Sequence record: MW630116.1
Reading direction: 5' to 3' (one strand)
Length of the DNA: 64,000 nt
DNA from: Escherichia phage vB_EcoM-ZQ3
Shown here: positions 8,977 through 22,730 of the stretch, in pieces
How the letters are laid out: every line of letters begins with the position of its first letter
How positions within the stretch are numbered: the first letter of the stretch is position 1
Made by a program: the position numbers and the translations under genes
The notes under the pieces: model-generated
Seen by the model: only the letters and a program-made list of their open reading frames with translations
What the model was told of the DNA's origin: nothing
Databases searched by the model: none

Positions 8977-9016
8977 TATAATGTCATGGACGGTAAACTA
9001 ATTAAATGAGAGAAAT

Positions 9017-9652
9017 ATGAAAACTACTCCTATTACTATCGCTATTGACGCAATCATAAAACAAGCTTCTTCTTTGGCCGCTATGGCCAAAGTAATTAGT
9101 CAAAACCCTGCTCGTTATAATGCTATTCTAGAAACTCTTCGACGCCCAGGACTTAGTAATTATGAAAGCCGAGTAATTATTACAGGTGTTGGTAAGAATG
9201 CTAATATTGCAACTAAAGCTTCTGAGACATTTGCTTCACTCGGTATCCCGAGTATGTACTTGAACACTGGGCATTATTCTCACGGTGATGCAGGATTCAT
9301 TGCGCCTAATGATGTGTTGATTCATATTAGTCGTTCTGGTAAAACTGAAGAAATGATAGGCGTGGCTAAGCATCTTAAAATGATTCGTCCGAACGTCAAA
9401 CAGATTCTGTTGCATTGTAACCCGGACATTCCACAAGAATACGAAGCTCTTTTTGATTATACGTTCTGTACAGGCATCGCAGTAGAGGTTGATGAGAATT
9501 CTCTGGCTCCGACCATGTCCACTACATTGTTGTTAGCGCTTATCGATACGTTTGCTATCAACCTTTCGTCTGAACGTGGATTTACCTCTAATGACTTCCT
9601 TAAGTTCCACCCTGGCGGTGCACTAGGTGCCATGTTACGAGGCGAACAATGA
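9017..9652 (+). CDS. SIS-domain sugar-phosphate isomerase, KdsD/GutQ-like D-arabinose-5-phosphate isomerase (no CBS domains)
   Basis: VGKNANIATKASETFASLGIPS...HGD...ISRSGKT and LAPTMSTT...FHPGGALG closely parallel the KdsD SIS core, including conserved Lys and His. Confidence 0.8.
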   Translation: MKTTPITIAIDAIIKQASSLAAMAKVISQNPARYNAILETLRRPGLSNYESRVIITGVGKNANIATKASETFASLGIPSMYLNTGHYSHGDAGFIAPNDVLIHISRSGKTEEMIGVAKHLKMIRPNVKQILLHCNPDIPQEYEALFDYTFCTGIAVEVDENSLAPTMSTTLLLALIDTFAINLSSERGFTSNDFLKFHPGGALGAMLRGEQ

Positions 9653-9792
9653 AAGCAATAACAATAGGACTTTTACTATTGATGCTTGTCATGACTATCT
9701 ACTGGAGCTTAACGGCTCCAGTAATGATTCCGACTCTTATAATCGGATGGATTATGATTGGACTACAAGCAAAGTATGAATGCTTTAACTAG
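9649..9792 (+). CDS. possible 47-aa small membrane protein
   Basis: ATGA overlap with upstream stop; hydrophobic sequence; below the track size cutoff. Confidence 0.35.
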   Translation: MKAITIGLLLLMLVMTIYWSLTAPVMIPTLIIGWIMIGLQAKYECFN

Positions 9793-9833
9793 AATAGTGT
9801 ACAATACTCCTACTTACCAATGAGGACCACAAC

Positions 9834-11522
9834 ATGAAAAAAGCTGTTATTCTTGGTGCTGGACTGGCAACTCGTTTGTATCCAATAACGCATCATATTC
9901 CTAAGGTGCTTGTTAACTATAAACAAGACACTATTCTGAGCAATTTGTATACAATTTATTCTGACCTTGGCGCAGACGAAATTATTGTAGTAGTTCATTC
10001 AAAATTTGCTGAAACTGTTCGAGCTTATTGTGAGCAAGAAGGGTTCAATGTGACTATTCGTACAGTTGATGAAGCGTATGGTTCTGCTTATGCTCTTGCT
10101 AAATTACACAAAGATTTAAACGGCCATAATGTAATTGTTAACTGGTGTGATATTATTCCTGATTTTGGTTCGTGGTCTTGGAATGTTAACGCAATCTATG
10201 TTAAGGGTGACGAATGTCGATATAATTTCGACGGTGAAAATATCACTAATGTAGGTTCAACAGGTGGTAATGTTGTAGGAATTTATCAGTTCAAAGACTG
10301 GGAATTCTATATGGGTTCTACTGATGAGGAAATTCATGAATACTGCAAAGGACGTGATTTCGTAGAATTCCTTTACGGCAGCGCATTCAATAAATCAGAG
10401 CTTATGAATATCATCGACCTTGGTGATATGCCTAAACTTGAAAAAGCTCATGAAGTTCGTGAACTTAATCGTAGTTTTAATGCAGTTGAAATTGGCGAAG
10501 AAACGGTAACAAAGATTGCTTTAACAGAACAGGGCGTTGCACTTCAAAAAGATGAAGTCAATTGGTATAAGAAAGTTAAATCAGATTCAGTTCCACGGAT
10601 TGTAAGTTATCATCCTGGCGGCCACTTTATTATGGAACGTATTAAAGGTAAGCCGGCATTTGAATATATTAAATCCAAATCAAGTCTTGCTCGTCCACAA
10701 ATTGTTGATGCAATTTTAGATGCACTGAAATTCAGCACAGACACTTATTTTGTAAGTCCTGAAACTGTTCGTCGTGATTTCACTAAAGAGTTCTATACGA
10801 AAGTTATTGATCGTTGTGAAAGTATTCAACCATTGATTGATTCATTTGGTAAAATCACACATGTGAACTACACTAAGATTGGGCGTCTGAAGCCAATGCT
10901 GAAACAAGCTTTAGAACACCTTATTCGTTATCATAACCGTTCTCAGGGACAGTACTCTGTTATTCATGGTGACCCGAACTTCAGTAATACTATGATTACT
11001 GATAATGGTGAAGTCAAGTTTATCGACCCTCGTGGATATTTTGGTGAAACCAAGATTTATGGGCCAAAATTGTATGATGAAGCTAAAGTGCTTTATGCTG
11101 TTTCAGGTTATGATGAATTCAACGCTAATCCGACTTGGGGACAGTTTACTATTGATGAAACAACTTGTAATGTGACTATTAACATCAATCCGTTAGTTTA
11201 CAAATATGGAAAGATGAGTTCGTTTAACGAGTATCATCATTTGGCAGTGGCAATTATCTGGATTGCATTGGGTGGTTATTTCAAGAATAATCCACTTAAA
11301 GCGGTAGCCGCATATTATAAAGGTATGGAACTTCTGACTAAGCAATTACGTAACATGGGCCGTGTACTTCAGGACGGCTCTATTAGTTATGACGTAGCAG
11401 AACCTGTAACGGCTACTCTGATTACAAAAAATCCTGGTAAATGGGTACTAACTGATAAAGAAACTGGTGTTTCTTATCGTCCAATCGGTGGCGATATCAC
11501 TCATCAATGGGAACGAATCTAA
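9834..11522 (+). CDS. bifunctional sugar kinase / sugar-1-phosphate nucleotidyltransferase
   Basis: N-terminus AVILGAGLATRLYPIT (RmlA/GlmU-type NTase motif); C-terminal HGDPNFSNTMIT and KFIDPRG (APH/choline-kinase-like Brenner motif). Confidence 0.8.
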   Translation: MKKAVILGAGLATRLYPITHHIPKVLVNYKQDTILSNLYTIYSDLGADEIIVVVHSKFAETVRAYCEQEGFNVTIRTVDEAYGSAYALAKLHKDLNGHNVIVNWCDIIPDFGSWSWNVNAIYVKGDECRYNFDGENITNVGSTGGNVVGIYQFKDWEFYMGSTDEEIHEYCKGRDFVEFLYGSAFNKSELMNIIDLGDMPKLEKAHEVRELNRSFNAVEIGEETVTKIALTEQGVALQKDEVNWYKKVKSDSVPRIVSYHPGGHFIMERIKGKPAFEYIKSKSSLARPQIVDAILDALKFSTDTYFVSPETVRRDFTKEFYTKVIDRCESIQPLIDSFGKITHVNYTKIGRLKPMLKQALEHLIRYHNRSQGQYSVIHGDPNFSNTMITDNGEVKFIDPRGYFGETKIYGPKLYDEAKVLYAVSGYDEFNANPTWGQFTIDETTCNVTININPLVYKYGKMSSFNEYHHLAVAIIWIALGGYFKNNPLKAVAAYYKGMELLTKQLRNMGRVLQDGSISYDVAEPVTATLITKNPGKWVLTDKETGVSYRPIGGDITHQWERI

Positions 11523-11908
11523 TGCACCGTGTAGAAAACATGCTTAATCTTTGTTTTGATGTCGATGATTGTATAACAGAGTGGAATAACAATCGTGATT
11601 ACGTGAACTTCAAACCAGACGTCGAAATGGTGTCTGCCATTAATGCCCTGTATGATGCAGGGCATACCATAACGCTTTACACTGCTCGCGGTATGAAGTC
11701 AGTCGGTCCTGGTCGTATAGCAATTGACATTCTCCCAAGTCTGATTCAGAACTTGGCAAACATTGGATTGAAGTACCATAATTTGCTAACACATAAACCA
11801 GTATATGATTGGATTATCGACGATAAAGCTATGCGTCCTGACGAATTCAAAGCTCTTATGAATAAAGGCGAATTCGAAACATTTAAATCATATAAACCGA
11901 ATCTATAA
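11522..11908 (+). CDS. small HAD-superfamily phosphatase
   Basis: TAATG overlap; candidate HAD motifs FDVDD (I), LYTARG (II), K in THKPVYD (III), IIDDK (IV). Confidence 0.65.
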   Translation: MHRVENMLNLCFDVDDCITEWNNNRDYVNFKPDVEMVSAINALYDAGHTITLYTARGMKSVGPGRIAIDILPSLIQNLANIGLKYHNLLTHKPVYDWIIDDKAMRPDEFKALMNKGEFETFKSYKPNL

Positions 11909-11964
11909 TAATTTAAGTAAGACCTGCAAAAACCATCGCGTCAATTAACGTGAGATGCAAAAAA

Positions 11965-13125
11965 ATGAATACCTTTAAAATCGGAACGAATTTTGATTTA
12001 GCTCTTCTTGATAAAATCGTAGAGCTCAATAAAACTTATCCTAATAGCTTGATAAATGAAGTATACGGCTCTACAAGAGAAATGGCTTTTGTAGCAGCCA
12101 GACCTGATTTTAGGCTTCCTGACGTTGACAAAAAGATGTTAGAAGATTATGTTAAACGTTGTAACGAATTAGGTATTTGCTTTAACTATACACTCAACAC
12201 GATAAATCCTGGTTCAAAAAGAGAACTAGTTGAGTGGAAGAAGAAAGCTATTCAGGATTATGTTCAGTATCTTTGGTCAATAGGCGTATGGCGTATTACT
12301 ATCGCTAACCCTGTTGTTATGGAAATTGTTCGTGAAGTCAATAAAGACATTGAGATTGAAGTTTCAACAATTCTACATGTTGATGCTGTAACTCAAATCA
12401 AATACTTGCATGACCAGTATAATATCAAAAAGGTCTGCTGTGGAATTCATAAGAACCGTTCAGTTTCTTTCCTGAAGCGTGCAGCAGAGTTTTGCAATAA
12501 GAACAATATAATATTTGAAGTTCTCGTAAATGAATTCTGTTCTAATGCCGGTAAAGGGTATACAACACATTGTAGCTATCGTGACTCTTGCTATATTTTC
12601 CATAGCACAGATGTTACAGTAGATGATGCTAAATCCTTAAATGGATATCCAATGCAACACTGCATTAAAGCTCGTGATACAGACCCATTTAACTGGTTGA
12701 GAACTCGTTTTGTTCGTCCTCAAGATTTGAAACTTTATAATGATATTGGTATCACTCAATTCAAAGTTTCAGGACGTACAGGTAGCACAGACTACATTTT
12801 GAAAGTTCTTGAAGCTTATGCTTCTGAAAAATTTGAAGGTAATTTGTTGGAATTGTGGAAGCCTTTAGAGACCATTTTCACTCTTGAAAATGAGACCGAG
12901 TTTTCACATACGGTAAATATTGAAACCTCTTTGTTAGATGGCTTTTTAGAAAAAAGGTGGTTCAAACATCCAGATTTCGATTGTGCTAATGAAATCTGCG
13001 GGACGACGTGTACATATTGTGAAAGATATTATAAACGTCAGTTATCTAAAAATGGGTTATCAGAAAACTCTATATCTATTATTGATATAACTAACTCTGA
13101 CGACGCTTTGAGGTACCCAGAATGA
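11965..13125 (+). CDS. Cys-rich enzyme of uncertain family (possibly peptidase-U32-like Fe-S TIM-barrel protein)
   Basis: 386 aa from ATG 11965; cysteine clusters EFCSNAGKGYTTHCSYRDSC and C-terminal CANEICGTTCTYC; QFKVSGR resembles the U32 KIEGR-type motif; assignment tentative. Confidence 0.75.
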   Translation: MNTFKIGTNFDLALLDKIVELNKTYPNSLINEVYGSTREMAFVAARPDFRLPDVDKKMLEDYVKRCNELGICFNYTLNTINPGSKRELVEWKKKAIQDYVQYLWSIGVWRITIANPVVMEIVREVNKDIEIEVSTILHVDAVTQIKYLHDQYNIKKVCCGIHKNRSVSFLKRAAEFCNKNNIIFEVLVNEFCSNAGKGYTTHCSYRDSCYIFHSTDVTVDDAKSLNGYPMQHCIKARDTDPFNWLRTRFVRPQDLKLYNDIGITQFKVSGRTGSTDYILKVLEAYASEKFEGNLLELWKPLETIFTLENETEFSHTVNIETSLLDGFLEKRWFKHPDFDCANEICGTTCTYCERYYKRQLSKNGLSENSISIIDITNSDDALRYPE

Positions 13126-13283
13126 TTTCTAGAAAAACTTTTAACCACCAACTTAATGAAGAGATTTTGACTACGAAAATTAACAGCAACGAACAAATTC
13201 TTAAAAAGGCCCTGATGGGCCTGTTTGAAACTAAAGCGGCTAAAGTGATTAAAGAAACCTGTTCAACTAGAATACTATGCTGA
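13122..13283 (+). CDS. possible 53-aa small protein
   Basis: ATGA overlap with upstream stop; no homology recognised. Confidence 0.3.
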   Translation: MISRKTFNHQLNEEILTTKINSNEQILKKALMGLFETKAAKVIKETCSTRILC

Positions 13284-13359
13284 TGCATTTCTTCATAGTG
13301 TTCTTGGAAGTATCGATGCTGAAGCTTTACGTTATATCAACATTGTCAAGAAATTCAAA

Positions 13360-13385
13360 TAAGCTTTACGAATTGAGTATATAAT
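13360..13385 (+). promoter_or_regulatory. putative MotA-dependent middle promoter
   Basis: taaGCTTTA box, 11-nt gap, TATAAT 13380-13385; aagctttacg also at 13322. Confidence 0.45.
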
Positions 13386-13404
13386 AAATTGTATTGAGGT
13401 AAAC

Positions 13405-17185: not shown

Positions 17186-18628
17186 GTGGTAGAAATTATT
17201 TTGTCTCATCTAGTATACGACCAGGCTTATTTTTCTAAGGTCTGGCCTTATATGGATTCTGAGTATTTTGAGCGTGGACCGGCAAAAAATGTCTTTAAAA
17301 TTATAAAGAGCCACGTTAACGAATATAATGCAATGCCGTCTATCAATGCATTAAAGGTGGCTTTAGATAACAGTTCTTTAACTGAAGCCGAATATAAAGG
17401 AACTTCAGACCTAATTGAAAAATTGGCTGATACTCCTGAAGACCACGAATGGTTGGTTAAAGAAACTGAGAAATATGTCCAGCAAAAAGCGATGTATAAT
17501 GCTACATCCAAAATCATTGAGATTCAGTCTAATGCTGAACTACCTCCAGAACAACGTAACAAGAAAATGCCTGATGTAGGAGCTATTCCTGATATTATGC
17601 GTCAAGCACTTTCAATTTCGTTTGATAGTTATGTTGGACACGACTGGATGGAAGACTACGAAGCACGCTGGCTTTCTTATCTGAACAAAGCACGTAAGGT
17701 CCCGTTCAAATTAAACATTCTGAATAAAATCACTAAAGGTGGTGCTGAAACCGGTACACTGAATGTTTTAATGGCTGGTGTTAACGTTGGTAAATCTTTA
17801 GGCCTTTGTTCACTTGCTGCAGATTATCTTCAAACAGGTCATAATGTTCTTTATATTTCTATGGAAATGGCTGAAGAAGTTTGTGCTAAGCGTATAGATG
17901 CAAACATGCTTGACGTATCACTTGATGATATCGATGATGGTAACGTATCTTATGCTGAATATAAAGCCAAGATGGAAAAATGGCGTTCAAAATCCACATT
18001 AGGACGTTTAGTAGTTAAACAGTATCCTACTGGCGGAGCTAATGCTAATACATTCCGTGCATTGCTTAATGAATTGAAACTCAAGAAGAACTTTGTGCCA
18101 TCTGTAATCATGGTTGATTACTTAGGTATTTGTGGGTCTTGTCGTATCAGAGTTTACACTGAAAATAGTTACACATTAGTTAAAGCTATCGCAGAAGAAC
18201 TTCGTGCATTAGCAGTAGAATCTGAAACAGTTCTATGGACTGCAGCTCAAGTAGGACGTGCAGCATGGGATGCTTCGGATATGAACATGAGCGATATTGC
18301 AGAATCAGCAGGTTTACCAGCAACGGCAGATTTCATGTTGGCCGTAATTGAAACCGAAGAACTTGCACAAGCTGAACAACAACTTATCAAACAAATCAAA
18401 TCACGATACGGTGATAAGAATAAGTGGAATAAATTCCTGATGGGTGTACGTAAAGGCAACCAGAAATGGATTGAGATTGAGCAAGAAGGCATGAACACAC
18501 CTAACACAGTAAATGAAAACGCAGGTGCTCAGATGCGTCAGGCAGAGGTGAATCGTACGGAACGCGTAGGTAGAGCCAAAGCAACACGGGCTGACCTAGA
18601 TAGCTTAGCTAATGAGTTAAAATTTTAA
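17186..18628 (+). CDS. 41: replicative DNA helicase gp41 (DnaB-like)
   Basis: GTG start; 480 aa; Walker A GVNVGKS; N-terminus VEIILSHLVYDQAYFSKVWPYMDSEYFE matches recalled T4 gp41. Confidence 0.95.
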   Translation: MVEIILSHLVYDQAYFSKVWPYMDSEYFERGPAKNVFKIIKSHVNEYNAMPSINALKVALDNSSLTEAEYKGTSDLIEKLADTPEDHEWLVKETEKYVQQKAMYNATSKIIEIQSNAELPPEQRNKKMPDVGAIPDIMRQALSISFDSYVGHDWMEDYEARWLSYLNKARKVPFKLNILNKITKGGAETGTLNVLMAGVNVGKSLGLCSLAADYLQTGHNVLYISMEMAEEVCAKRIDANMLDVSLDDIDDGNVSYAEYKAKMEKWRSKSTLGRLVVKQYPTGGANANTFRALLNELKLKKNFVPSVIMVDYLGICGSCRIRVYTENSYTLVKAIAEELRALAVESETVLWTAAQVGRAAWDASDMNMSDIAESAGLPATADFMLAVIETEELAQAEQQLIKQIKSRYGDKNKWNKFLMGVRKGNQKWIEIEQEGMNTPNTVNENAGAQMRQAEVNRTERVGRAKATRADLDSLANELKF

Positions 18629-18634
18629 TAAAAA

Positions 18635-18655
18635 GGAGACTTCGGTCTCCTTTCG
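18635..18655 (+). terminator. hairpin terminator after gene 41
   Basis: ggagac-ttcg-gtctcc then T-containing tract. Confidence 0.5.
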
Positions 18656-18716
18656 GGGTTTACATCTTCCTCTAGGCATGATATGATGTACTTACACCGA
18701 CCAAGAGGAGAACAAA

Positions 18717-19034
18717 ATGAAAACCATCGATTGTAAAGCAGAATTTAAGATTTTTTATCACGGTTCAAGTAGTTCAGCTAACATCGAAAACATGCTTTGT
18801 CCTCCTGAAGAAACAGGAGTTCTGTCTGAAACTGGACGTAAGAAAAACTTGGATCGTGTATTCTTTACTGAAGATATCGGTTTAGCAAAGATTTATGCAG
18901 GACGAGCAGCACGCTCTTATGGAGGTGAACCACGTCTCTATCGAGTAATTTCTCCGGTAGACGTAGTTCAAATGAATGATACTAAAGGTGCTACAGTTTA
19001 TCACGCTGAATGGGCATTTTGCGAGGAAATATGA
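18717..19034 (+). CDS. hypothetical protein
   Basis: 105-aa ORF with RBS agaggag. Confidence 0.6.
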   Translation: MKTIDCKAEFKIFYHGSSSSANIENMLCPPEETGVLSETGRKKNLDRVFFTEDIGLAKIYAGRAARSYGGEPRLYRVISPVDVVQMNDTKGATVYHAEWAFCEEI

Positions 19035-19219
19035 ACAAATTAACTAAAGTTACTTTTATCGGTTGGTTTAAAAGCGGTGAGATGTTCACTAAAGATATCA
19101 TGTTATCAGGTGATCGCGAAGAAATCGAGTGGGTTACGGTACAACTTGCTGAAGTGAACAACGCATTAGTTAAAGCATTTGTTAATGACGAGAAAGTTTT
19201 CGAGGCAGATTTTCAATAA
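19031..19219 (+). CDS. dmd: Dmd antitoxin-like protein (inhibitor of RnlA/LsoA toxins)
   Basis: 62 aa; FIGWFKSGEMFTKDIM...AEVNNALVKAF resembles recalled T4 Dmd. Confidence 0.8.
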   Translation: MNKLTKVTFIGWFKSGEMFTKDIMLSGDREEIEWVTVQLAEVNNALVKAFVNDEKVFEADFQ

Positions 19220-19232
19220 TTTTAAAATAACT

Positions 19233-19262
19233 GTTTACAAGCCCCACATACTGTGTTACTAT
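19233..19262 (+). promoter_or_regulatory. T4-type early promoter
   Basis: GTTTAC 19233-19238, 18-nt spacer, TACTAT. Confidence 0.45.
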
Positions 19263-19290
19263 CTTTCTATCAACTACAGAGGAAATTGAA

Positions 19291-19659
19291 ATGAAAAAAT
19301 TAATCGCTTTAGCAATGGTATTTGGATTAACCGGATGTGGTGCCCACGGCTTTATCCCTAATAACGTTGGCCAACTGATTTACAATCCGAATGTTAAACA
19401 ATATGAACAACCTAAAGTTGAAGTGGAAGACCCGGTTACTGTAGGTAATCGAATGATTCAAGCTGATGCTCATGCTCAACGTTATCGTGATTCTGATACC
19501 GTAGCTATGTCAAAAGAACAGCGCGTTAAAGAACATTGCTTACAGGCTACTGAAATCGCATTCATTCGCTATGTTGAAACAACCGGTAAAGAGCCTACCC
19601 AGAAACAAATCGCGAATAACTACGTCCGGTGTATTGAACGTTTAAACAAATTTAATTAA
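19291..19659 (+). CDS. lipoprotein
   Basis: signal peptide with lipobox LTGC (MKKLIALAMVFGLTGC). Confidence 0.75.
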   Translation: MKKLIALAMVFGLTGCGAHGFIPNNVGQLIYNPNVKQYEQPKVEVEDPVTVGNRMIQADAHAQRYRDSDTVAMSKEQRVKEHCLQATEIAFIRYVETTGKEPTQKQIANNYVRCIERLNKFN

Positions 19660-19720
19660 TTGGTTTACGCCAAAGTTAAAACAAGATATTATAAACATAA
19701 CAAATCAAGAGGAAATTAAC

Positions 19721-19969
19721 ATGGAATTATTCGTAGCTAGTTCAGTAGCTGTTTTAATCGCAGGTATTGGTTCAATCATCATTTACATGTTGCCTTGGGT
19801 AATCGCACTTATTCGTGGCACAAAAAACACAACAGCAATCTTCTTTGTATCTTTACTCTTTAACTGGACGATGATTGGTTGGATTGGAACTTTAATTTGG
19901 TCTATCGTTGCCGAAAAGAAATCTGCTCAGCAGCCTCAACAAGTAATTATTATTCGCGAAAAAGAATAA
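19721..19969 (+). CDS. small inner-membrane protein, superinfection-immunity (Imm)-like
   Basis: 82 aa, two hydrophobic segments; LPWVIALIRG...WTMIGWIGTLIWSI resembles the Imm superinfection-immunity family pattern as I recall it. Confidence 0.6.
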   Translation: MELFVASSVAVLIAGIGSIIIYMLPWVIALIRGTKNTTAIFFVSLLFNWTMIGWIGTLIWSIVAEKKSAQQPQQVIIIREKE

Positions 19970-19973
19970 ACTT

Positions 19974-20003
19974 GTTTACATTATAGATGGACTATAGTAT
20001 AGT
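19974..20003 (+). promoter_or_regulatory. T4-type early promoter
   Basis: GTTTAC, 18-nt spacer, TATAGT, then conserved cctatcaa leader. Confidence 0.45.
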
Positions 20004-20034
20004 AGTCTCCTATCAAATCAACTAAGGAGTTAAA

Positions 20035-20328
20035 ATGAAAAAGTTATCATTGGCAGCAATCTTACTTGCAGTATCATGTGCACCGGCTCCAGTTACAGCA
20101 GGTTATGATAAAGACCTATGTGAGTGGTCAATGACTGCAAATCAAGAAGATGTTGAACAACAAATCTTCTCTGATATCATGAACATCACTAAACGAGACC
20201 GTCCTAATATGGTTAATAAAGTTGTTGAACAACTTAAGTCTGGTGGTATCATGCAGTACAATTATGTTTTGTATTGTGACCCTAATTTCGATAACAAAGA
20301 TATCGTAACCGAAATCACAGGTGAATAA
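20035..20328 (+). CDS. sp: Spackle (periplasmic superinfection-exclusion protein, lysozyme inhibitor)
   Basis: 97 aa with signal peptide; GYDKDLCEWSMTA...QYNYVLYCD matches recalled T4 Sp. Confidence 0.88.
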   Translation: MKKLSLAAILLAVSCAPAPVTAGYDKDLCEWSMTANQEDVEQQIFSDIMNITKRDRPNMVNKVVEQLKSGGIMQYNYVLYCDPNFDNKDIVTEITGE

Positions 20329-20329
20329 T

Positions 20330-20980
20330 ATGATTTATTATATGCACAAAAATGCGCCATTTAAATATGGTAAATTTCCTAATGCACAATGTTATAATAT
20401 AACGCCGAATGAAAATAATAACGGATACCATATTGGTGTAATTTTTGTAATTGTTAAAGATAACGAAATCGTTGCCTGGGCAGATTTTAAAGGTACAACA
20501 TATGATGTTAATCCGGTGCCTTTCACATATTACAATATAATGGATTTGGCATATGATTATAATTGGTTTAATCATGACGCGTTGGCTCATATTGAAGGTG
20601 TAGGATTTGACATCTCATATTCTAGCTATTCATTATGCCCTATGAGCCGAGCTCACGGTAAAGATGCATCATATCTTTCATTTCGGAAACGTGTAAACTT
20701 CAAACGTAGTACAGAGTATGTCGGTGGACTCTTTGTTAAAGATAATAAAATAACCCGTATTAGTTATCCTTTAAGTGTAGGTCAAAAAGATGTTGTTGTT
20801 GATTTAGACTTAACCGAAAATAACATTAATCATATTGCTTCTGTATATTTTGATATTGATGAAAAAATTGTAGTGTGTGGATACGAATTACCGCCTGAAG
20901 AAAAGGCTGAAACAATTGAAGTCGAATTAGAAATTTCTGTTGATGACCAAATATTTAATGCATTTATGAATCGAGGTTAA
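20330..20980 (+). CDS. hypothetical protein in a low-GC segment
   Basis: 216 aa from ATG 20330; AT-rich coding sequence. Confidence 0.6.
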   Translation: MIYYMHKNAPFKYGKFPNAQCYNITPNENNNGYHIGVIFVIVKDNEIVAWADFKGTTYDVNPVPFTYYNIMDLAYDYNWFNHDALAHIEGVGFDISYSSYSLCPMSRAHGKDASYLSFRKRVNFKRSTEYVGGLFVKDNKITRISYPLSVGQKDVVVDLDLTENNINHIASVYFDIDEKIVVCGYELPPEEKAETIEVELEISVDDQIFNAFMNRG

Positions 20981-20981
20981 A

Positions 20982-21179
20982 ATGAATACTGCAATTTGCA
21001 CTGGTTCTAAAATTAGTGTTTTTACAAGTTTTGAAGATTATGAAGTTGTTTCAAAACACCAATACCATATTAGCGTAAAAGCTAATGATGGTGTAATTTG
21101 GAATATTCCACAGTATGAAGGCACTACATATGAAGTCACAGATATAAATGGTGACAAAGCAATCTTTGTAATTGATTAA
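20982..21179 (+). CDS. hypothetical small protein
   Basis: 65 aa; RBS gagg. Confidence 0.5.
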   Translation: MNTAICTGSKISVFTSFEDYEVVSKHQYHISVKANDGVIWNIPQYEGTTYEVTDINGDKAIFVID

Positions 21180-21198
21180 ATATACTCAGGAGGTACCT

Positions 21199-21666
21199 AT
21201 GGGTATTATTAACACTGCAATAGATTCTGTTTATGCATATAAGTTTATTCGACTAATGCAAAAACCTTTTACCGAATGGAAAGCATACGAAGCCAAAATC
21301 ATCGATGACCGTGGAAGTGTTCTTAAACGTCCTTCTACTCCAGAAGAGAAAGCTGCGTATACACCTTTTCATGCTTCAGTTCGTTCAATGAAGCGAATGA
21401 TGAGCACTGTTCCAGGTCTTAATGGAATGGCCTCAATGATGTCTGCCTGGAGTGCTGTAGCTTCACGCTATAACATTACGGAAGAACAACAGAAAGAAAT
21501 ATTTAAAGAACTCCCTTTATTTGAGGATATGGTTGCTGGTGATTCAGGTGGCAGCCCTCAAGCTATTGCATCAGGAACAACTACAGGTGCAGTAGTAAAT
21601 AAAGGTCCAGAACAAATTCCTTCCAAGAAAAGAAAGCGAATTAAAGTAAATATTAATAAGTTGTGA
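21199..21666 (+). CDS. hypothetical protein
   Basis: ATG 21199 preceded by aggagg; basic C-terminal tail. Confidence 0.6.
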   Translation: MGIINTAIDSVYAYKFIRLMQKPFTEWKAYEAKIIDDRGSVLKRPSTPEEKAAYTPFHASVRSMKRMMSTVPGLNGMASMMSAWSAVASRYNITEEQQKEIFKELPLFEDMVAGDSGGSPQAIASGTTTGAVVNKGPEQIPSKKRKRIKVNINKL

Positions 21667-21707
21667 TAAGATGGCCCCTTATTAATTTAAGGCCTCTGGA
21701 GAATACT

Positions 21708-22730
21708 ATGGCTGAATGGATAGATAATGAATTTGCTTATCGCGCGTTTTCTCACCTACCTCGTTTTAGACAAATCAATAATTCAAGCACATTTAAATTA
21801 ACATTTCGATGTCCAGTTTGTGGCGACTCCCAGACAGATGCAATGAAAGCTCGCGGATGGTATTATGGCGGTACTCCTGGTAATGTACATTGTTATAATT
21901 GCCAATACCACAATACAATTTCCGGATACTTAAAAGAGTATGATGAAGAGCTTTATCGCGAATATCTAATGGAAGTTCGTAAAGAAAAAGCTAGAATGGA
22001 ACCAAAGATTGAAAAGGTTCCTGAAGCTAAGCCGGAGCCAGAGAAAAAGACTATAAATTCTTTGCCGTCTTGTTCTCGCCTGGACAAGCTGCCTGAAGAG
22101 CATCCTATTGTGAAATATGTTAAGTCTAGATGCATTCCTAAAGAATCATGGAATAGACTATGGTTCACATTAGAATGGCCTAAATTGGTCAACAAGATTC
22201 AACCTGGTACGTATAAGAAAGAGATTCCAGAACCACGTTTGGTGATTCCTATTTTTAATAAAGACGGGAAGGCTGAGTCATTCCAAGGACGTGCACTTCG
22301 TAAAGATGCTCCTCAGAAATATATCACTATTAAAGCGTTTGAGTCTGCAACAAAAATTTATGGTGTTGAACGTGTTAAGGAAGGAGACGTCTGGGTAATG
22401 GAAGGCCCTATTGATAGTTTATTCATACCCAATGCAATCGCTATTACAGGCGGCTCAATAGATTTAGATGTGGTACCATTTAAAGAACGTCGGGTATGGG
22501 TAATGGATAATGAACCTAGGCACCCGGATACTATAGCTCGCATGAAGCGATTAGTTGACGCAGGCGAACGTGTCATGTTCTGGGACCGAGCTCCATGGAG
22601 ATCAAAGGATGTGAATGATATGGTAATGAAAGAAAATGCAACACCACAAGAAATTTTAGAATATATGAAACAGAATATTTCAAGTGGGTTGCATGCTAAA
22701 ATGAGATTATCTCGTTATTCTAAGATTTAA
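21708..22730 (+). CDS. 61: DNA primase gp61
   Basis: zinc ribbon CPVCGDS...HCYNC; toprim MEGPIDS and VMDNE; ATG 21708 with ggag RBS. Confidence 0.9.
   Translation: MAEWIDNEFAYRAFSHLPRFRQINNSSTFKLTFRCPVCGDSQTDAMKARGWYYGGTPGNVHCYNCQYHNTISGYLKEYDEELYREYLMEVRKEKARMEPKIEKVPEAKPEPEKKTINSLPSCSRLDKLPEEHPIVKYVKSRCIPKESWNRLWFTLEWPKLVNKIQPGTYKKEIPEPRLVIPIFNKDGKAESFQGRALRKDAPQKYITIKAFESATKIYGVERVKEGDVWVMEGPIDSLFIPNAIAITGGSIDLDVVPFKERRVWVMDNEPRHPDTIARMKRLVDAGERVMFWDRAPWRSKDVNDMVMKENATPQEILEYMKQNISSGLHAKMRLSRYSKI

Follow-up and report, generated by a model that had tools for sequence, protein, structure and literature searches.

The 64,000-nucleotide stretch of the Escherichia phage vB_EcoM-ZQ3 genome analysed here (MW630116.1; hereafter the window) carries, between the gp41 helicase and gp61 primase genes, three consecutive ORFs on the + strand, imm.1, imm and sp, whose products are 122, 82 and 97 amino acids long (Table 1). 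The segment as first described, positions 19233–20328, runs from the first base of the GTTTAC -35 hexamer preceding imm.1 to the final base of the stop codon of sp. A Shine–Dalgarno sequence (GAGG or AGGAG) stands 7–10 nt 5' of the ATG of all three genes (for imm.1 it is GAGG, 9 nt upstream). A sequence-only reading of this DNA had proposed that three adjacent envelope-targeted genes lie here, each behind an early promoter, and both the genes and the T4-type consensus matches before them were found at the places it had given.

Table 1. Features in and around the imm.1-imm-sp segment of vB_EcoM-ZQ3, with positions in the 64-kb window.
Feature	Position	Strand	Description
43-42 slot	8977-13404	+	SIS-domain, nucleotidyl-transferase, unknown and U32-like ORFs; no imm.1-imm
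gp41 helicase	17186-18628		Upstream of the trio
105-aa ORF			Between gp41 helicase and dmd
dmd	19031-19219	+	Left flank; PF17587, 69.9 bits
Early-promoter match, imm.1	19233-19262	+	T4-type; GTTTAC-N18-TACTAT, TG before -10
imm.1	19291-19659	+	122-aa predicted lipoprotein, Pfam DUF5481
Early-promoter match, imm	19663-19692	+	T4-type; GTTTAC-N18-TATTAT
imm	19721-19969	+	82-aa superinfection immunity protein, two predicted transmembrane segments
Early-promoter match, sp	19974-20003	+	T4-type; GTTTAC-N18-TATAGT
sp (gene 61.3)	20035-20328	+	97-aa Spackle precursor
adfA / 61.2	20330-20980	+	Right flank; PF23813 AdfA, 398 bits
Two small ORFs			Between adfA/61.2 and gp61 primase
gp61 primase	21663-22730		Downstream of the trio

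A 3.1-kb stretch around the three genes is 97–98% identical at the nucleotide level to many complete phage genomes, and the taxonomy lines of the matching records, where read, give Straboviridae, Tevenvirinae and Mosigvirus, the genus of RB69. By sequence, the window is the genome of a Mosigvirus, an RB69-like T-even phage. The neighbourhood of the trio has a conserved left anchor, dmd, which is followed by 61.4 in RB69, T4 and JS10 and stands without it here; a search for a 61.4 homologue across the 64-kb window found none. On the right, alignment puts adfA/61.2 in its T4 position. The window contains no second copy of Imm, Imm.1 or Sp that our searches could find, and a search of NCBIfam with all three proteins returned no matches. 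We also considered the 82-aa protein as a candidate for T4 gp61.4, the occupant of the dmd-sp interval in T4, and rejected it; gp61.4 is an unrelated soluble protein.

The 82-aa protein had been described as Imm-like, with two membrane segments and a position directly upstream of sp, and a profile search against the Imm family had been suggested. That search gave a match to PF14373 (Imm_superinfect) at 58.3 bits (cut-off 27.9), with residues 21–62 spanning model positions 1–42 of 42, and phrog_1039 ('immunity to superinfection') was matched at E 1e-30. The protein aligns with T4 Imm (83 aa) end to end with a single gap and 53/83 identical residues (64%; E 8e-37), among them the C-terminal QVIIIREKE. 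Its two hydrophobic segments lie at approximately residues 3–31 and 40–59 (19-residue Kyte–Doolittle windows scoring at least 1.6 cover residues 1–34 and 40–59), and T4 Imm has the same pattern. The two family matches, the full-length identity and the shared segments thus identify the 82-aa protein as a true orthologue of T4 Imm, beyond mere likeness. A sequence search of the PDB with Imm returned no matches.

The product of the third gene matches Pfam PF25676 (T4_Spackle) at 145 bits (cut-off 27), as well as PDB chains 6x6o ('Protein spackle', E 1.4e-39) and 7cn6 (E 1.1e-33), and is 66% identical to T4 Sp. In T4, the exported Sp is trimmed of its signal sequence and folds into a disulfide-bonded bundle of helices; by binding to the gp5 lysozyme domain, this bundle inhibits the enzyme, so that the tail tubes of secondary phages do not penetrate (PMC7677548). 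Features of T4 Sp can be followed in the protein examined here: its N-terminus is hydrophobic over residues 4–24 (a predicted export signal), its disulfide pair, Cys29/Cys81, is identical to that of T4, and so are the gp5-lysozyme contact residues named by Shi et al. 2020 (PMC7677548), Ser32, Met33, Thr34, Ala35, Gln37 and Asn76.

The first gene of the trio encodes the lipoprotein that the sequence-only reading had placed ahead of Imm. Its N-terminus, MKKLIALAMVFGLTGC, contains a canonical lipobox (LTG/C, residues 13–16) with Gly at +2, and T4 Imm.1 also has one (LAG/C, residues 12–15). The protein matches PF17578 (DUF5481) at 38 bits (cut-off 27) and phrog_1754 at E 2.5e-28, and aligns with T4 Imm.1 along its whole length at 33% identity (125 aa; E 3e-19), the two having in common the motifs YNPNVK.Y and AQ.YR.SD and two C-terminal cysteines, which are Cys83 and Cys114 in the phage examined here. 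These matches identify it as the orthologue of T4 Imm.1 and not a new partner, and imm.1 lies directly upstream of imm in RB69 and T4 as it does in the window. In E. coli, a glycine at +2 of a lipoprotein predicts sorting to the outer membrane; since residue +2 is Gly here, the predicted lipoprotein Imm.1 is probably sorted to that membrane.

Structural comparison of Imm.1 gave little further. A PDB sequence search returned no matches, and a word-index search of a large protein database recovered only three, missing T4 Imm.1 itself, so that the alignment supplied to AlphaFold2 was shallow (three sequences). The resulting model has a mean pLDDT of 61; its confident part is only a helical hairpin at approximately residues 75–120, within which both Cys83 and Cys114 fall, while residues 1–47 are unstructured. 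The periplasmic domain is predicted to be helical. A Foldseek search of the model against the PDB gave a best E of 2.3 and no fold-based lead, and our literature search on imm.1 found no paper that addresses its function. Labels such as 'immunity', which some records attach to imm.1, look like guilt by association.

Early promoters were assigned by consensus. Across the 64-kb window, GTTTAC-N16-18-TANNNT is found 19 times against 2.84 expected (an approximately sevenfold excess that none of 100 shuffles reached), and 17 of these matches are on the + strand. Four of them follow one another at 18658, 19233, 19663 and 19974, just 5' of the 105-aa ORF, imm.1, imm and sp, respectively; for each gene of the trio, 28–32 nt separate the last base of the -10 element from the ATG. 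Against the PST/T4 promoter consensus TTTACW-N17-TAYWAT, elements of which kind have been linked to modular shuffling (PMC4122927), the imm.1 promoter is a full match, while those of imm and sp each deviate at a single base, imm in its -35 (TTTACG) and sp in its -10 (TATAGT). We therefore predict, from these consensus matches, that imm.1, imm and sp are each preceded by an early promoter of their own. Alignment shows the GTTTAC and -10 elements of the sp promoter kept in place in RB69, T4 and JS10. The imm match is kept in RB69, where its -10 reads TACTAT, and the spacer between imm.1 and imm, which is 11 bp long and has no promoter in T4, is 61 bp long and carries a promoter match both here and in RB69; imm thus carries its own promoter match in Mosigvirus, beyond that of imm.1. 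No terminator-like site was found between 19200 and 20050, and a search for stem-loops in the three intergenic regions revealed only trivial AT palindromes.

The order of these genes differs among related phages. In T4 (Tequatrovirus) it is 43 - imm.1 - imm - 42 in one place and dmd - 61.4 - sp - 61.2 in another; this T4 annotation agrees with the sequence-only reading, which had placed imm between 43 and 42 and sp near 61. RB69 (Mosigvirus) has dmd - 61.4 - imm.1 - imm - sp - 61.2. In JS10 (Dhakavirus), imm comes right after 43, without an annotated imm.1, and the other region reads dmd - 61.4 - sp; in the Citrobacter phage Merlin, imm, again alone, adjoins the gene 42 homologue, the features that its match runs across being named imm and thymidylate synthase (the family of gene 42). 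In the window, imm.1-imm sits between dmd and sp, and the 43-42 slot is, as had been claimed, taken up by other genes (Table 1). Sugar-nucleotide genes of such a kind have been proposed to serve ara-hmC synthesis in RB69, with ORF53_52c and ORF055c as candidates (PMC6024577).

Although the genes upstream of the imm.1 promoter differ (43 in T4, dmd or 61.4 in Mosigvirus), the 80 nt 5' of imm.1 are homologous between T4 and the phage examined here, the alignment running through AACTGTTTACAAG, TACTAT and the leader CTATCAACTAC. Because promoter and leader are homologous to those of T4, imm.1 and imm appear to have moved as a unit with their own promoter, and what relocated is, on this alignment, a two-gene cassette, imm.1-imm, plus that promoter. 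Across the four lineages compared, it is most economical to regard the position of imm near 43/42 as the older and the dmd-sp position of Mosigvirus as derived. On such an account the Mosigvirus lineage would have placed the imm.1-imm pair in the variable region between 41 and 61 and given the 43-42 slot over to sugar-nucleotide genes, and the clustering of imm.1, imm and sp would be an outcome of the modular shuffling of promoter-bearing cassettes, with no need to invoke a selected, operon-like consolidation.

To see how widespread the arrangement is, we compared the three proteins, concatenated, with phage records by tblastn, counting the trio as contiguous where a single place covered at least 80% of the query. 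Matches were found in 970 records and the trio was contiguous in 154 of them; all of the contiguous records whose taxonomy line was read are Mosigvirus. Among the records sampled, those of Tequatrovirus have imm.1-imm as one place and sp as another, and those of Klebsiella and Serratia phages have sp only or imm only at the tblastn sensitivity used. Imm.1 alone is present in 656 records, with at least 90% identity in 154 and about 33% in the other 502 (33–37% among those listed), so the number of Mosigvirus-type Imm.1 alleles (154) equals that of contiguous trios (154). It follows with high probability that imm.1-imm-sp is the standard gene order of the genus Mosigvirus, as judged from these sequence matches.

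The arrangement is also already known. In many of these records the genes already bear the labels 'immunity to superinfection' and 'spackle periplasmic protein', and the RB69 record (AY303349), annotated since 2003, gives the same order under the names imm.1, imm and sp. Being normal for the whole RB69 genus and so long annotated, the layout of the trio is ordinary, and its value as a discovery is small: annotated RB69-like genomes normally show it, and what Imm and Sp do is standard knowledge from T4. Its modest interest lies elsewhere, in offering a clear-cut case of a cassette of two genes that, together with its promoter, occupies different variable regions in sister genera, and in drawing attention to Imm.1 (DUF5481), an envelope lipoprotein that is conserved, evolves fast and is linked to imm.

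If the proteins behave as their sequences suggest, then once a cell is infected, the small products of the three early genes would each be exported to their own layer of its envelope. Imm, by way of its two transmembrane segments, would enter the inner membrane and block the transfer of DNA from later-arriving phages. In T4, plasmid-borne imm alone reportedly confers immunity, Imm is said to be an inner-membrane protein, and excluded phages reportedly eject part of their DNA. Spackle would reach the periplasm and there bind and inhibit the lysozyme domain that gp5 presents at the tail tip of phages arriving later. Acting jointly, T4 Imm and Sp stop a secondarily adsorbing phage from translocating its genome and leave adsorption unaffected (PMC6832632). 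Given identities of 64–66% and the conservation of key residues, we infer that Imm and Sp of the phage examined here act as their T4 orthologues do.

The part played by Imm.1 is far less clear-cut. On account of the link to imm and the predicted location in the envelope, our best guess is an accessory role in exclusion or envelope protection, though with a probability well short of even. Against a part in exclusion stand Dhakavirus JS10, which has imm but no annotated imm.1, and the immunity that cloned T4 imm reportedly gives by itself. In its more specific form, that Imm.1 is a third exclusion or envelope-protection component which works with Imm from the outer-membrane side, we hold the idea to be unlikely. 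Were it true, the fast divergence of Imm.1 (33% identity against approximately 65% for Imm and Sp) could be read as adaptation to the incoming phages specific to each genus. Considerably better placed, and only a little short of even in our estimation, is the proposal that Imm.1 has nothing to do with exclusion, but modulates, for example, the envelope, the timing of lysis or host defence, and has hitch-hiked with imm. Consistent with this proposal, the databases label the family DUF5481 and phrog_1754 'unknown function', with no functional annotation; the protein diverges much faster than its neighbours (33% identity with T4, as opposed to 64% for Imm and 66% for Sp); PDB sequence search, AlphaFold2 and Foldseek produced no structural analogue; and the sole pointer to an exclusion role is linkage, from which the 'immunity' labels seem to have been borrowed. 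Set against it are the adjacency of imm.1 to imm, kept in both Tequatrovirus and Mosigvirus despite the relocation, and the arrangement of the pair in T4, where a single promoter precedes both genes and only 11 bp lie between them, suggesting that they are expressed together.

Whether the clustering itself is functional is a separate matter. The idea that AT-rich phage DNA produced these ORFs or promoters by chance merits practically no credence: the generic sigma-70 scan, which does recover the three promoter sites of the trio as consensus matches, yields only a small excess overall (20 sites in 3.3 kb against 12.4 expected), so that many of its single matches are noise, but the T4-type motif is enriched, biased to one strand and regularly spaced before each start codon, and the strong, specific family and orthologue matches of all three ORFs, conserved in hundreds of phages, refute a chance origin for them. 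'Consolidated superinfection-exclusion locus', the phrase of the sequence-only reading, is a fair description of a layout in which imm.1, imm and sp are contiguous. Taken as a claim about selection, it would mean that a lipoprotein of the outer membrane, an inhibitor in the periplasm and a protein of the inner membrane were brought together as one exclusion machine spanning the envelope, tight linkage keeping co-adapted alleles from being parted when co-infecting phages recombine. The predicted locations do cover three envelope layers, imm.1 and imm are adjacent in both genera with a shared, transferred promoter, and none of the 154 Mosigvirus-type records departs from the arrangement; such fixation, however, is expected from common descent alone in a genus this close (95–99% nucleotide identity). 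T4, moreover, works with imm and sp approximately 6 kb apart, and JS10 carries imm without an annotated imm.1. Nor does the trio require co-transcription, as each gene here has its own promoter match, that of imm being missing from the short T4 spacer. In view of the T4 spacing, the separate promoters and common descent, we consider selected consolidation improbable and prefer to see the clustering as a by-product of the relocation of a cassette into the 41-61 variable region.

Two known systems offer partial parallels. For an envelope lipoprotein acting in exclusion there is a precedent in Llp of T5 (PMC9586334), a small, early-expressed phage lipoprotein in the infected cell's envelope that mediates superinfection exclusion. 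Llp is an analogy only, as it blocks the FhuA receptor and we found no relationship in sequence or fold between it and Imm.1. For the relocation, the parallel is with the mobile PeSL (promoter-early stem-loop) cassettes described in T4-type phages (Arbiol 2010, PMC2839356; Comeau 2014, PMC4122927), in which early promoters flank small variable genes in a hyperplastic region, as they do here, and in which, again as here, a promoter-bearing gene cassette is met at different genome positions in related phages. The three promoters of the trio differ in having no stem-loop or terminator element beside them. With the stem-loop half thus absent, we do not file these sites as PeSLs, and cassette shuffling of the kind seen in T4-type hyperplastic regions is offered as a plausible analogy for the mechanism.

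Among the T-even phages themselves, the region resembles that of T4 in its orthologues (64% identity for Imm, 66% for Sp and 33% for Imm.1), in having imm.1 directly upstream of imm, and in the slot of sp beside 61.2/adfA; it differs in the placement of imm.1-imm, which in T4 is the 43-42 slot, some 6 kb from sp. RB69 (AY303349) retains 61.4 (213 bp, between dmd and imm.1) and, after gene 41, RB69ORF041c, both of which are absent from the window, and otherwise has the same genes as the phage examined here in the same order, with the same spacing and the same three promoter matches, the concatenated Imm.1-Imm-Sp sequences of the two being approximately 91% identical.

Position 164 of AdfA has been linked to function: histidine there enables neutralization of the DarT1 toxin, while the R164 form found in RB69, Bas46 and Bas47 is inactive against it (PMC11257639). 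When the window AdfA was aligned to that of RB69, the residue matching Arg164 proved to be a histidine (NINHIASVY). Given the reported activities, the window phage, a Mosigvirus, may carry the anti-DarT1 adfA allele that is active.

Features of the window and of the RB69 and T4 reference loci
Feature	Location	Strand	Remarks
RB69ORF041c	RB69 locus L004, 1292-1666		375 bp; between gene 41 and the 105-aa ORF
105-aa ORF	window, 18717-19034		phrog_2110; upstream of dmd, overlapping it
adfA / 61.2	window, 20330-20980		aligned to RB69 AdfA
164-aa ORF	window, 21172-21666		phrog_2086
short hydrophobic ORF (MKSKIIAALLLILMIIISIYY...)	T4 locus L003, ~9225-9376	minus	just downstream of T4 imm

The 164-aa ORF is a single reading frame in the window, as opposed to two neighbouring ORFs, RB69ORF032c and 61.1, in the RB69 record, which suggests that the split in that old record reflects a frameshift or sequencing error; a comparable case there is ORF053c/ORF052c (PMC6024577).

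The Mosigvirus and Tequatrovirus forms of Imm.1 share just 33% identity (window 19291-19659 against T4 locus positions 9637-10014); for its neighbours Imm and Sp the values are 64% and 66%. By identity, the 656 phage homologues of Imm.1 form two separate groups, with none intermediate. The short hydrophobic ORF in T4 overlaps the stop codon of imm (ATGA); it has no entry in the NC_000866 feature table, and the RB14 annotation places gene 42.1 in the region just downstream of imm.

The 105-aa ORF, which had no Pfam match, lies among a series of host-interaction genes (dmd, imm, sp, adfA), and a related record, OR062947, gives it the name 'putative ADP-ribosyl transferase'.

RB69, AV109 and many relatives carry RB69ORF041c, but the window does not (18629-18716), and this absence accounts for the ~430-bp gap in most megablast matches. 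Also absent is the 213-bp gene 61.4 (RB69 locus 2228-2440), whose corresponding site is window 19195-19235; ahead of the imm.1 promoter, TTTTAAAATAACTGTTTAC resembles GTTTAAAATAGCTGTTTAC at the 3' end of RB69 61.4. In RB69, 61.4 sits between dmd and imm.1, and in T4 and JS10 between dmd and sp, whereas the window lacks it.
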